A stretch of DNA of 64,000 nucleotides. It comes from an uncultured delta proteobacterium (GTDB lineage Bacteria; Myxococcota_A; Polyangia; Palsa-1104). The position numbers and the translations under genes are program-made. The notes under the pieces were generated by a model. That model made no database searches. It was not told the DNA's origin and worked only from the letters and a program-made list of their open reading frames with translations. This document shows, in pieces, positions 40,874 through 53,533 of the stretch. Position 1 is the first letter of the stretch. Each line of letters opens with the position of its first letter. Location of the stretch: contig CAWAWS010000005.1 in the NCBI GenBank assembly GCA_963785725.1, positions 160,001-224,000 of the forward strand, given 5' to 3'.

Positions 40874-41714
40874 GGTCATCGTCACTTGTGCCGTCACCGG
40901 CGCGGTCACCACCAAGAAGCAGTGCGCCGCGATTCCTTATACCGCCGTGGAGATTGGCGAGGAGTGCCGGCGCGCCTACGAAGCGGGCGCCACCGTCGTG
41001 CACGTTCACGGTCGCAGCGACGAGGGTCAACCCTCTTACGAGAACGAAGTGTTCGAGGCCTACAAGCGCGAGATCGAAGCGCGCTGTCCCGTCATCATCA
41101 ACTTTTCGACGGGCGCCGTCGGGCTCACCAAAGAGCAGCGCATCGCGCATATCATCAAGACGAAACCGCATATCGGCGCGCTCAATATGGGCTCGATGAA
41201 TTACGCGAAGTATTCGAGCAAGCGTAAGGACTTCGTCTTCAGCCTCGTCTTCGCCAATCCCTTCGACGAGATCATTTATTACCTCAAGCAAATGAACGAA
41301 GCCGGCGTGCGCGCCGAGTGCGAATGCTTCGACACCGCGCACGTCGCCTCTTTGGATCCGCTATTGGACATGGGTCTCTTGCAGGGACCGATCGACATCA
41401 ACATCGTGCTCGGCGTCATGGGCGGCGCACCGTCGACGCCCGATCATTTGAACTTCATCGCCACGCATTTGCCCAAAGGCTCCGTGTGGAAGACGACGCC
41501 GATCTCGCAGGCGACGTGGCCGTTGACCGCGATGGCGCTGGGAATGGGCGGCAATGTGCGCGTCGGTCTGGAAGACAACTTCTATTTGCCGACCGGCGAG
41601 ATGGTGCAGTCGAACGGCGAATTGGTGGCGGCGGCCGTGCAGATGGCGCGTTCGGCCGGCCGCACGCCGGCGACGGTCGAAGAGACGAAACAGATTCTCG
41701 GCATTACGCGATAA
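40857..41714 (+). CDS. Beta-keto acid cleavage enzyme (BKACE/DUF849, Kce-like)
   Basis: VTCAVTGA, GATVVHVHGR, INFSTG, LNMGSMN and NVRVGLEDN. Confidence 0.92.
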   Translation: MALGDKVIVTCAVTGAVTTKKQCAAIPYTAVEIGEECRRAYEAGATVVHVHGRSDEGQPSYENEVFEAYKREIEARCPVIINFSTGAVGLTKEQRIAHIIKTKPHIGALNMGSMNYAKYSSKRKDFVFSLVFANPFDEIIYYLKQMNEAGVRAECECFDTAHVASLDPLLDMGLLQGPIDINIVLGVMGGAPSTPDHLNFIATHLPKGSVWKTTPISQATWPLTAMALGMGGNVRVGLEDNFYLPTGEMVQSNGELVAAAVQMARSAGRTPATVEETKQILGITR

Positions 41715-41727
41715 GGAACCATTGACG

Positions 41728-43290
41728 ATGAAGATGCGTGACCGCGTAAAAGACCTCGAAGAGCGCCGTGCCCAGATCAAGCAGATGGGCGGCGAAGACA
41801 AAGTCCGTAAGCAGCACGAGCGCGGCAAGTGGACGGCGCGCGAGCGGATGGACCGCCTGTTCGACGACGGCAAATGGTTCGAGGTCGGCATTCACGGCAC
41901 GCAGATGGCTTATTACGGCGACGACAAGCCGCCGGCCGACGCCGTCGTCTGTGGTTATGGCCACGTCGACGGGCGCATGGTGTGCGCCGCCGCTTATGAC
42001 TTCACGGTCAAAGGCGGCAGCATCGGGCAGACCGGCGAAGTCAAGGTGTCGCGCTTACGCGAGATCGCGCTGCGCAGCCGCATTCCGATGATCTGGTTCA
42101 TCGACTCCGCCGGCGCGCGCATCGATCCGCAAGCGGGACAAAATGGCGACTTATTGTCGCTCTTCGCCGGCGCGGGCGCGCTGTTTCGCGAAGAGGTCAT
42201 CATGTCGGGCGTCGTTCCGCTGGTCGCGGCCATGGTCGGTCCGGGCGCCGCCGGAACGGCTTACATTCCGGGATTGGCCGACTTCGTGCCGATGATGAAG
42301 GACGTCGGCTCGATGGCGCTTGGGTGGCCCGCCGCTCGTCAAAGCCGTCACCGGACAGGACATTGGCGAGCAGGAATTGGGCGGCAGTAAGGTTCATACC
42401 GAGAAGTCGGGCGTCGGCGACGTCGAAGTGGCCGACGACTCGGAGTGCTTCGGGGACGATCAAGGAATATCTGTCGTTCTTTCCGTCATCGTGTGAGATC
42501 GAAGCCGCCGATCATGGTCTGCAATGATCCGATCGACCGGCGCGAAGAGGCGCTGCTCGATCTGTTGCCGGAGTCGACGCGGCAGTCTTATGACATGTTG
42601 GAGATCATTCGCCACGTCGTCGACTATGGCCGACTGCTGGAATTGAAGCCCAAGTTCGCGCGCGCCATCATTACGGGGTTGGCGCGGATCGGCGGTCGTC
42701 CCTGCGGCATCGTCGCCAACAATCCGCGTCATATGGGCGGCATTCTCACCAATGACAGTGCCGACAAAGCGGCGCGGTTCATTCAGATTTGCGACGCGTT
42801 CAATGTTCCTTTGGTGTTCTTGATGGACGTGCCCGGCTTCATGGTCGGCAGCAAAGTCGAGCACGAAGGGATCATTCGCCACGGCGCCAAGATGCTGCAC
42901 GCGATGGCGTCGGCGACGGTGCCGAAGCTGACCTGCGTCGTGCGTAAAGGCTACGGCGCCGGCTATTTCGTCATGGCCGGACGGGCTTACGAGCCCGATC
43001 TGATCGTCGCTTGGCCGGGCGCCGAGATCAGCGTCATGGGCGCCGACGGCATGGTCGGCATCGCCGGTAAGAAGCTGTTTCCGGGCGGCGATCCGCCGCC
43101 GGAAGTGCGACAGCAGTTGGCGGCGGCCATTCAACAGCACATCGACGTCTATAAAGTCGCCGGCTGGGGATTGGTCGACGACGTCATCGATCCGCGCGAT
43201 ACGCGGCAGGTGTTGGCGCGCGGGCTCGAGCTGGCCTGGAACAAGAAGGTCGAGCGGCCGTGGCGCAAGCACGGGATCATGCCGGTTTAA
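41728..43290 (+). CDS. Acyl-CoA carboxylase carboxyltransferase (beta) subunit; three apparent +1 frameshifts (~42322, ~42453, ~42498)
   Basis: [35 protein letters not shown]...[12 protein letters not shown] and GIIRHGAK are spread over three frames. Confidence 0.9.
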
Positions 43291-46419: not shown

Positions 46420-46716
46420 ATGGGCGATCCCTACGCCTCGAGCCGTCTTCAGCTGGAGCAGGTGGTCACCCGTGGCGCCGGGCACACCGAGCCGTCGCTC
46501 AGAGAGGCCATCGCGCGCGGCCAAGCGCCGCCCGAATTGGCCGCGCTCGTCGACAAGGTGCGGCGCCACGCCTACAAAGTGACCGACGAAGACCTCGCCG
46601 CGCTCAAGGCGACGTGGTCGGACGACCAGATCTTCGAGATCGTGGTCGCCGCGGCCTTGGGCGCTGCGGGCGATCGGCTGCGCGCAGGCCTGGCCGCGCT
46701 GGACGGAGTGGACTGA
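46420..46716 (+). CDS. Small AhpD/CMD-like helical protein without Cys
   Basis: LVDKVRRHAYKVTDEDLAALKATWSDDQIFEIVVAAA resembles the C-terminal half of CMD proteins; TGATG-coupled to the next gene. Confidence 0.75.
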   Translation: MGDPYASSRLQLEQVVTRGAGHTEPSLREAIARGQAPPELAALVDKVRRHAYKVTDEDLAALKATWSDDQIFEIVVAAALGAAGDRLRAGLAALDGVD

Positions 46717-47297
46717 TGCGACTCGCCAAGCTCGACCACGGGCACAGCTTCAAGCACAAGCTGCTGCTGCGGGCCATCAAGCTCTTCTCGGGATATCGCG
46801 CGCCCGACGTGGTCAAGACGCTCATCTATCGTGCGGCGTTCTTCGGCGACGCGCAGTCGCAGCTGACGCAGGAAGTGATGCGCGGCCCGTCGGAGTGGAC
46901 GGTCGGCGAGCGCGAGATCTTCGCCGCGTTCGTCTCGCGCTTGAACCAGTGTCTGTTTTGAACGAACGCTCATGCCGCGGTCGCGGCAATGTGCGTGGGT
47001 GACGAGCTGACCCAGCAGATCCTGGCGGACTACGAGACGGCGCCGATCGACGACAAGCTGCGCGCGATGCTCGGCGTCTTGAAGAAGCTGACGCTCGAAC
47101 CGGAGCAGGTTGGACCCGCGGACATGAAGCCGCTGCGCGCGCTCGGCCTCTCGAAGCAGAAGATCGCGGACGCGATGTACGTCATGTTCCTCTTCAACAT
47201 CTACGATCGGCTCGCCGACACGTTCGGGTGGGAAGTGCCGGTCCGCGCCGCGTTCGACGTCGGCGCAAAGCGGCTCCTTACGCGCGGCTATCGGTGA
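46716..47297 (+). CDS. AhpD/carboxymuconolactone decarboxylase-like peroxidase-related protein, probable selenoprotein (UGA-Sec at 46959-46961)
   Basis: EREIFAAFVSRLNQCLF-UGA-TNAH continues in frame into ...KKLTLEP...FNIYDRLADTFG; CxxU..H motif plus downstream hairpin. Confidence 0.85.
46966..46996 (+). other. Bacterial SECIS-like stem-loop
   Basis: ACGC-T-CA-TGCCGC [GGTC] GCGGCA-A-TG-T-GCGT; the apical loop begins with G, 17 nt after the UGA. Confidence 0.75.
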
Positions 47298-49952: not shown

Positions 49953-51328
49953 TTACTTGCCGGCGAGCATCATCTTGGCGACGCGGAAGGTCGGGCACGC
50001 CGTCGAGCTGCGCAGGTCGAGGTCGTCACCGACGGCGTCGACGTCGTGCCACAGGTCGTTGAAGTTGGCGCTGACCGTGACTTCGCTGACCGGCTGGCCG
50101 AGCTTGCCGTTCTCGATAAGGAAGCCGCCGGCGCCGCGTGAGAAGTCGCCGGTGACGGCGTTGAAGCCGAAGCCCATCATCTCCGTCACGTACAAGCCGC
50201 GCGACACGCCGGCGATAATGTCGGCGGCCTTGCTCGTTCCCGCCTGCATGACGAAGTTGGACGTCGTCACGTGCGGCGAGCCGCCGACGCCGCGGCCGGC
50301 GCAGCCGTTCGACTGGCGGCCCAGTTTGCGCGCCGAGTAGACGTCGGTCAGATAGGTCTGCAGGACGCCGCCGTCGACGACGACGTTCTTGCGCGACGCC
50401 AAGCCGTCGCCGTCGTACGGCCGCGAGCCGGGACCGCGCACGATGAGCGGATCGTCGACGATGGTGCACAACTTCGACGCGATCGAGCTGCCCTCGCGAT
50501 CGAGCAAGTAGCTCGACTTGCGGTAGATGGCGCCGCCGGAAACGACGCCGAAGATGAGGCGCAGAAGCGCGCGGCCGGCCTCGGGATCGAACACGATCGG
50601 CATCTCGCCGGTGGCGATCTTCTCCGAGCCCAGCTTGGCGACGGTGCGGCGCGCGGCCTCTTGGCCGACCTCCTCGGGCGACTTCGAGCTTGGCGAGGAA
50701 GCGATCGGCCGTCCACCAGTGGCCGTTGCGCTTCTTGCCGTCGGCGTCGTCGCAAATCGGCTCGACGACGAGCGACTGATAGGTGCCGCGAAAGCTGCCG
50801 GCGAAGCCGTCGGAGCTGGCCAGCGCGCTGGCGCCGACGACGCGGCCGTAGGTCGCGCCTTCGGAGTTCGTGACCTTGGGCGAGAACCCGCGCGCCGCCG
50901 CTTCGCCGCGCTTGCACCACTCGATCGCGTCCTTGGCCGTCGACGCCGAGCGCCGCTTCATCCCACAATTCGAGCTCGGGGAAGGTCGTCGCCAGCTGAT
51001 CGCGCGGCGGCAGCTCGTTGAGCAGGTCGGGCTCGGCCAGCTTGGCCAGCTCCACCGAGTCGGCGACGAAGCGCTCGAGCGCCGCGTCCGACAAATCCGA
51101 CGTGTACGTCAAGGCGACGCGCTGATCGCGGAACACGCCGAGGCCGAGCGCGCGCGACGACGCCTCCTGCACCAGCTCGGGCTCGCCCATGCGCACCTTG
51201 ACGGACAGCTCGGCGCCGCCCTGCACCAGCGCCTCGGCCGCGTCGGCGCCGTGCTTGCGCGCCAGCTCGACAGGCCTGCTCGCGAGTCGCGATGCGCTCG
51301 CGAGCTCTTCGGTAGCGTGGCTCGCCAT
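49953..51328 (-). CDS. pmbA: PmbA/TldE family protein; frameshifted (~50955, ~50685)
   Basis: GSRPYDGDG, GLYVTEMMGFGFNAVTGDFSRGAGG and SEVTVSAN; N-terminal parts lie in other frames. Confidence 0.85.
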
Positions 51329-51331
51329 GCA

Positions 51332-52777
<1,446 letters not shown>

Positions 52778-52915: not shown

Positions 52916-53533
52916 TTAGGCGTTGACCCGTCCGTCGACGGCGGCCAGCGTCTCGCCGATGGCGCGCGCCGCCTCGGCGATCTCGGCCTCGTCGCCGCCG
53001 AGCCACAGCCGGCCGACGGCGCCGAACGTGATGACCTCGAGCAGGTGGATGTTGGCCGCCTTCTCCGCCTCGTTCGCCGCCAGCGCCGCATACGCCGCCG
53101 GGTGCACCTCGAGCGTGTACAGCGTCTGCCCTTCGTTGATCATGTCGCCGTGCCGCATGCGATCGATGAGCGCCGCATGATGCCCGTCGATGCCGGTGAT
53201 CGTCTGCTCCGACAAGATGCGCGGCTTCAGCCGATCCTGCATCGAGACGCCCAGCTTCTCCAGCATCGCGTCGCCCGCATGCCGCACTTCGCCCTGGTCG
53301 AAGCTGTGGACCTCGAGCATGCCGTACGCGCGCTCGACGATCTGCATGCCCGGGATGACGCGCGTCTGCTTGAGCGCCACGTCGGTGATGGTGTTGATGG
53401 CGATGCCGGGCGCGATCTCGATCAACAGCGCCGCCTGATTGGCCAGCGGCAAGAAACCCGACGCGACCGTCTGAAAGAACGAGGCCAGCTGCGGCTGCAG
53501 CACGTCGAGATAGGTGAAGGTTCGCAGCTCCAT
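52916..53533 (-). CDS. Bacterial microcompartment shell protein, tandem-domain circularly permuted BMC-T (CcmP/CsoS1D-like)
   Basis: MELRTFTYLDVLQPQLA...EIAPGIAIN...PGMQIVERAYG...AANEAEKAA...FGAVGRLWLGG, closely resembling Haliangium ochraceum double-stacking BMC-T proteins as I recall them. Confidence 0.88.
   Translation of the reverse strand: MELRTFTYLDVLQPQLASFFQTVASGFLPLANQAALLIEIAPGIAINTITDVALKQTRVIPGMQIVERAYGMLEVHSFDQGEVRHAGDAMLEKLGVSMQDRLKPRILSEQTITGIDGHHAALIDRMRHGDMINEGQTLYTLEVHPAAYAALAANEAEKAANIHLLEVITFGAVGRLWLGGDEAEIAEAARAIGETLAAVDGRVNA

Follow-up and report, generated by a model that had tools for sequence, protein, structure and literature searches.

The window analysed here, meaning the whole stretch of 64,000 nucleotides, carries on its forward strand two adjoining genes, the second of which contains an in-frame TGA and is predicted to encode a selenoprotein of the AhpD-like family. 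The features of this locus, in positions of the window, are the following.

46420-46716, forward strand: partner gene of 98 aa, a Cys-free paralogue without the catalytic hairpin, whose stop overlaps the next start by one base (TGATG).
46716-47297, forward strand: AhpD-like gene, a predicted selenoprotein of 193 aa, with its ATG at 46716 and its stop TGA at 47295-47297.
46914-46973, forward strand: predicted relay codons E67 (46914-46916), C79 (46950-46952), U82 and H86 (46971-46973), in the arrangement E-x11-C-x-F-U-x3-H.
46959-46961, forward strand: in-frame TGA at codon 82, a putative Sec by homologue comparison, at the second position of CxxU.
46966-46996, forward strand: full hairpin predicted by RNAfold, with a bulged lower stem whose pairs are not conserved one by one.
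46973-46988, forward strand: conserved SECIS-like core, a 6-bp stem (46973-46978/46983-46988) with a GGUC loop (46979-46982), present in 126/126 TGA loci.

The two pieces given for the second gene in the list of open reading frames, one ending at 46961 and the other starting at 46989, lie in the same frame, and the sole internal TGA of the 46716-47297 frame sits in the translated stretch SRLNQCLF-U-TNAH. The first-pass annotation had described these pieces as a single frame split by TGA, which yields a 193-aa protein on read-through, and this could be reproduced from the sequence; 46716-47297 is one intact gene and not two short frames. It has no frame break of the indel type, while elsewhere in the window the genes at 41554-43290 and 50026-52777, which from their translations we take to be acyl-CoA carboxylase-like and TldD/PmbA-like, respectively, are broken across frames in the same list, suggesting indel errors in the assembly. 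On the reverse strand, a 205-aa open reading frame at 52916-53533 (MELRTFTYLDVLQPQLASF...) presumably resembles a bacterial microcompartment shell protein. A promoter and terminator scan returned no promoters and one terminator-like site, on the minus strand and at chance level. The TGA is unchanged in contigs of close relatives from two sequencing runs, X1 and X4, both of study P1: X1 record 4 bridges codon 82 with 6 differences in 168 nt, and X4 record 8 does so with 20 differences in 181 nt, the X4 contig also carrying a change from U-A to C-G at 46973/46988, which is a stem pair. A search of sequencing runs returned no run with half of the query words and listed no RNA run.

Homologues were drawn from the order (21/42 genomes), a sample of the phylum (21/401), a Gaiellaceae record, which was the only locus found by a single-protein search of genome contigs, a sample of the latter's phylum (16/301), and the best 80 of 568 metagenome matches. 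At codon 82, the resulting 142 loci have TGA in 131 and Cys in 11, with no other stop. Seven distant loci (<36.5% identity; five with TGA and other hairpins, two with Cys) were set aside, leaving 135 close loci of at least 36.5% identity, the window included, with TGA in 126 and TGC or TGT in nine, a set which is biased in that 80 of its members are top-ranked metagenome matches and in which related sequences are not independent. Homologues with either TGA or Cys at this codon, as had been anticipated, were thus recovered. Past the TGA, 125/126 loci have a further 108-125 codons without a stop, the remaining one being cut off by the end of its contig. By genome, 45 of those sampled carry the TGA form, as opposed to seven with the Cys form. 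In a tree built by a quick method from 72 rows (without locus L152), the Cys forms are scattered among the Sec forms, with five changes; its starred branches force only one Sec/Cys change and its root is unsure, and therefore no Sec-to-Cys direction is claimed.

Among the more distant loci, L028, L030, L031 and L032 (genomes G022, G001, G003 and G038) and L029 (G034) are 30-34% identical and have TGA at the same codon, in the motifs CFY-U-T and CRY-U-M; their hairpins differ (GUU or GGUCA loops), they have no partner gene, and they probably form a separate CFYUT-type family. The genome of the window (G000) also encodes, at C47:172915-173409 (L036), a Cys-type (CEFC) TIGR01926-like paralogue that is 33% identical and without a partner.

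Bacterial SECIS elements are hairpins with a small, G-containing apical loop located 16-37 nt after the UGA (PMC10778597, PMC1088965). The first-pass annotation had proposed a bulged stem-loop at 46966-46996 that fits this geometry. RNAfold does predict such a stem-loop, with its GGUC loop 17 nt after the UGA and so within the published range, while the lower stem did not hold up as a conserved feature, since the next pair below the conserved 6 bp (+11/+28) is formed in only 17/126 TGA loci. The hairpin alone is thermodynamically weak and modestly better than chance: a 42-nt window folds with z -2.46 (2/200 shuffles), longer windows give z of -1.2, -0.3 and -0.6, the Rfam scan found no SECIS model that matches it, and GGT-loop hairpins of similar type follow 77 of the 185,324 TGA triplets of the genome. 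It is the homologue comparison, not the fold, that places the hairpin beyond chance.

All six stem pairs form in each of the 126 close TGA loci, and the codons GCG GTC GCG at +16 to +24 are found in every one of them, corresponding to 47/47 clusters at 70% identity. At the invariant four-fold residues G44, A70 and A109 the commonest codon reaches only 55-66%, and in the genome's proxy ORFs 248 of the 2117 occurrences of Ala-Val-Ala are encoded by GCG GTC GCG. Cys forms that retain Ala-Val-Ala use GCG GTC GCG in 0/5 cases, and each of three stem pairs is kept in only 4/9 Cys forms, this control being a small one of nine loci. Three of the six pairs vary on both sides (22 cells among 46 representatives, with 0/500 shuffles as high), and the covariation score is 0.269 versus 0.075 in shuffled alignments and at most 0.076 in slid controls; the other three pairs are invariant and uninformative on covariation, and relatedness inflates such counts. 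The conservation of the TGA together with the hairpin, expected from the first reading of the locus, is thus borne out in relatives by a stem in 126/126 loci and by two-sided changes, while the Cys forms lose the fixed codons. Judging from these alignments, the RNA constraint also appears to show in the protein as paired residue changes at +5/+9, where the combinations that keep the stem are G/S (78 loci), A/A (31), S/E (11), T/V (4) and D/S (2). If true, a SECIS lying in frame would here be imposing coupled residue substitutions next to an active site.

The first-pass annotation had implied that Sec genes would lie elsewhere in this genome, and all four were located. In the 8.9-Mb genome, which is 88% complete, selA, selB and selD are on contigs other than the window's and score over the curated profile cut-offs (557.5, 303 and 332.7 bits, respectively), and a tRNA-Sec with anticodon TCA (UCA) scores 73.4 bits. 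The selD gene (G000:C19:97308-98228) is a Cys form, CGGCAAK. A selA match is present in 43/45 TGA-bearing genomes; the other two, G139 and G403, have selB, and G139 has tRNA-Sec as well. G234, with only the Cys form, gave no match for selA, selB or tRNA-Sec. Since selA is widespread across the groups sampled (40/42, 248/401 and 205/301, or 62-95%, the third tally including three unpublished genomes, G442, G489 and G561), this co-occurrence is supportive but weak. When L152, which comes from the unpublished genome G529, is left out, the counts become 125/125 loci and 42/44 genomes, and no claim depends on this locus. A Sec-type formate dehydrogenase was not found in G000 at its 88% completeness, the best match (E 1e-12) being under the cut-off and without an internal stop, and the Sec trait may be kept in this genome for small redox selenoproteins.

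On these comparisons the TGA at codon 82 is very probably recoded as selenocysteine, and the original proposal of Sec recoding gains support from the Sec genes, from the TGA and Cys homologues, and from the joint conservation of TGA and hairpin. An in-frame ATG at 46989, past the TGA, and the presence of both halves as separate protein-database entries could be taken to mean that the TGA really terminates translation, or that it arose by nonsense mutation or assembly error, the gene then being split or dead; this is very improbable, as the column of 126 loci has the same TGA and never TAA or TAG, termination there would divide the C-x-x-U-x3-H site, the downstream RNA structure goes with the TGA, and the contigs of relatives retain it. 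A variant genetic code in which TGA is decoded as Trp or Gly, to which 11 database homologues written CxxW (P0123-P0125 among them, with Trp at the Sec column) might point, has next to no likelihood, given that TGA terminates both the AhpD-like gene and its partner and that the selA, selB and selD frames are free of internal stops; the CxxW entries correspond to TGA-type sequences, gene-caller mistranslation being the simplest explanation.

Outside the window, a second gene with an in-frame TGA was observed at G000:C7:817940-818278 on the reverse strand (L163/L165, P0171), which encodes about 110 aa with the motif QDEYTHD...D(T/C)T-U-LG. Within the order, 22/42 genomes match it, and in every one of these a match contains the TGA; in the phylum sample it was found in 8/80 selA-positive versus 0/80 selA-negative genomes, seven of the eight having TGA and the last a distant homologue (L187) in which Cys occupies the aligned position. 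GGTC is present at +18 to +21 in all 20 parsed loci (3/23 were not parsed), and in 14/20 a stem of 5-6 bp abuts it directly, the other six having a shifted stem or none folded. Fourteen members gave no NCBIfam match, no Pfam match over cut-off was obtained either, and the gene is not recognisable by motif in the available text of the review table (PMC13188914). From its sequence, it may represent an undescribed selenoprotein family, and it is probably more novel than the AhpD-like gene.

For the AhpD-like protein itself, searches were performed with U read as C. The peroxidase-related model TIGR01926 is matched by a narrow margin (88.8 bits versus a cut-off of 81.8), two Cys relatives falling under it (69.8 and 58 bits), Pfam CMD is just exceeded (23.3 versus 23), and TIGR00778 is under its cut-off (23.6 versus 27.8). 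The predicted structure (pLDDT 93.4) gave Foldseek TM values of 0.72-0.77 to 2pfx, 3c1l, 2oyo and 6k40, and its best match, 2pfx (TM 0.77, E 1.4e-8), points to an AhpD-like, all-helical fold; the closest solved sequences are 6k40 (E 1.8e-17), 2oyo, 2pfx, 3c1l and 2prr. Relative to codon 82, Glu at -15, Cys at -3 and His at +4 are present in 126/126 TGA loci. In database homologues the first Cys is replaced and the second kept in 16/194, and the reverse is seen in three, so that position 82, as far as the alignment goes, looks like the key residue. In Mycobacterium tuberculosis AhpD, Cys133 is the attacking thiolate, with which this pattern of replacements agrees.

The upstream partner gene, which the first-pass annotation missed and which is an addition to it, has a counterpart beside or fused with the AhpD-like gene in 131 of the 135 close loci: it lies upstream of 122 TGA and seven Cys forms and is fused downstream in two Cys forms, while of the four loci without it two lack the flank and in two none was detected. 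Stop and start overlap by 1 nt in 54/129 and by 4 nt in 35/129 (89/129 in total), and 105/129 partners have no Cys. An hhalign comparison relates partner to enzyme (95%, E 2e-8), except that the partner skips about 36 columns, those of the C79/U82/H86 segment; what it keeps includes its C-terminal helices and the RGP turn. The model of the partner (pLDDT 95) resembles the PDB family matched by the enzyme, with TM values of 0.70-0.76 and weak E-values (E > 0.001). An atlas search of the partner returned only unnamed clusters (0.97), the nearest named cluster having CMD in 13% of its members (0.82). Single-ORF fusions were found with the partner last (L145, L149, P0189, P0279, P0301, P0248, P0277 and P0297) and with the partner first (P0140); those counted are all of the Cys type and none of the Sec type. 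By eye they occur in several lineages, L145/L149 and P0140, the only fusions placed in the tree, being in separate clades. P0161, P0164, P0168, P0230 and P0265 look like products of frameshift or chimerism and were not counted as fusions, and a search for longer proteins containing the partner returned two, neither of which is a clean fusion. In 55 loci with flanks of 1.5-3 kb, no other neighbour is conserved beside the gene pair, and no reductase, peroxiredoxin or AhpC-type gene was seen. The other neighbours in the window (acyl-CoA dehydrogenase, VIT1, MaoC hydratase and inositol monophosphatase family) appear incidental.

Taken as a whole, the locus very probably holds an intact gene whose UGA is recoded and whose product is a predicted AhpD-like selenol/thiol oxidoreductase, likely working with the Cys-free paralogue. 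By analogy with established bacterial Sec biology, SelB with Sec-tRNA(UCA) would bind the hairpin whose GGUC loop lies 17 nt past the UGA, and Sec would be delivered at codon 82. By analogy with AhpD chemistry, U82, activated by H86 and E67, would then attack a peroxide or an oxidised partner, C79 would resolve it through a selenenylsulfide, and a cellular reductant would reset the site. The 98-aa protein, from the gene overlap and the fusions, would be co-translated and pack against the enzyme without a catalytic part.

A peroxidase or disulfide-reductase role is, by this analogy, reasonably probable. Bmp8 uses one Cys, and deiodinases provide Sec-based dehalogenation. It is rather unlikely that Sec is inserted for non-peroxidase reductive chemistry of this kind (for example, Bmp8-like dehalogenation), with the partner shaping the substrate pocket; this alternative draws on the fold shared with the debrominase Bmp8 (TM 0.70, E 4e-7), on the first Cys being dispensable in 16/194 homologues, which fits single-nucleophile chemistry, and on a His132-equivalent that is Phe or Tyr with no AhpC-type gene conserved beside the pair, whereas the peroxidase-related group is much closer than Bmp8 (E 5.5e-35 versus 4e-7; the fold likewise) and C79 is retained in 126/126 Sec forms. 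As for the partner, its adjacency or fusion in 131/135 loci makes it likely to be a subunit, and on balance the Cys-free paralogue would be a co-translated, non-catalytic structural subunit in complex with the enzyme. The broader reading, in which a two-subunit selenoenzyme consisting of a Sec AhpD-like chain and a pseudo-enzyme paralogue moves across phyla as a cassette and has been fused repeatedly, has about an even chance of holding. A stand-alone homo-oligomer, with the upstream gene being only a co-transcribed paralogue or regulator that makes no stable contact, is a real possibility, if somewhat short of even: solved AhpD-like proteins are homo-dimers, trimers or hexamers (PMC3141380), the partner is predicted to fold confidently alone (pLDDT 95), and the seven more distant loci have no partner nearby, as opposed to the adjacency or fusion of the two genes in 131/135 close loci, which span two phyla and include Sec forms as well as Cys forms, with stop/start overlap in most of them and fusions in both orders. 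If the two-subunit reading is true, a fold known from homo-oligomers would gain a heteromeric member, which might act on a substrate of its own.

AhpD-like CxxU selenoproteins (COG2128) were described in 2005 from the Sargasso Sea, with 27 sequences (PMC1088965), followed in 2006 by an AhpD-like selenoprotein in two genomes (PMC1794560), and the GOS survey listed 299 as 'AhpD-like 1' (PMC2398784). An 'AhpD-like protein, TIGR01926, CxxU' is among the predicted families (PMC13188914, PMC9312934), and BSepDB probably holds AhpD-like CxxU entries (PMC13326102), so that the remark in the first-pass annotation that such proteins are known from computational surveys is borne out by lists published since 2005. 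Because the family has been predicted since then, the gene is a further member of a known predicted family that was missed by annotation. In Table 1 of a 2026 review it is 'predicted with high confidence' and stands outside the experimentally verified section, so that 20 years of prediction have not brought it onto that list in the available text (PMC13188914). The gene is split or mistranslated by gene callers, with some database entries stopping at CxF, others beginning beyond it, and others again having Trp. Those with Trp at the Sec column are P0123-P0125, P0150-P0155, P0176 and P0249, probably from TGA mistranslated under another code. Since Sec forms outnumber Cys forms in the genomes sampled (45 versus 7), the family is undercounted.

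The finding leaves knowledge of Sec recoding itself unchanged. The part for which no description was found in the literature, in searches that were few and word-based, is the gene pair with its conserved pseudo-enzyme partner. The locus offers a clean test case, with a 16-nt core that is near fdhF in loop and spacing, natural Cys forms and natural fusions, and for expression of the selenoprotein the upstream partner should be included.

Compared with known systems, the (seleno)protein models NF041238 (AhpD_rel_CFYUT; 34.2 versus a cut-off of 175), NF053654 (YciW-related; 17.5 versus 310) and NF041047 ('distant AhpD'; no match) have the AhpD/CMD fold with CxxU in common with the gene described here, which scores far under their cut-offs. 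The spacing of E67, C79, U82 and H86 equals that of Glu118, Cys130, Cys133 and His137 in M. tuberculosis AhpD (PMC3141380), whereas the position of His132 is Phe in 117 and Tyr in nine of the 126 TGA loci, the overall likeness is weak (TM 0.41, E 0.14), and no ahpC is conserved near the gene; in the lack of both the His at -1 and a conserved ahpC linkage, the gene departs from true AhpD. The Deinococcus radiodurans AhpD-like protein DR1765 (6k40), like the peroxidase-related proteins 2oyo, 2pfx, 3c1l and 2prr from structural genomics, shares E-x11-CxxC-x3-H and is among the closest folds, while these solved proteins have Cys in place of Sec, are about 25% identical structurally, and have no partner subunit in their entry titles. 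Functional data are for Cys relatives only, the D. radiodurans AhpD mutant being H2O2-sensitive and the CxxC being needed (PMC8945050). With the published AhpD-like family (representative MCB9421940.1), to which it is assigned by model and motif, the gene has in common the TIGR01926 match, CxxU, a SECIS-like hairpin inside the ORF and Cys homologues, and the Cys-free partner and the fixed GCG-GTC-GCG hairpin are not mentioned in the available text on that family. Finally, when the Escherichia coli fdhF sequence was folded in the same analysis, a GGUC loop on a short stem was found to be common to both elements, at 18 nt after the UGA in fdhF versus 17 nt here, while the stem sequences differ and 6 bp are conserved in the stem at 46973-46988.
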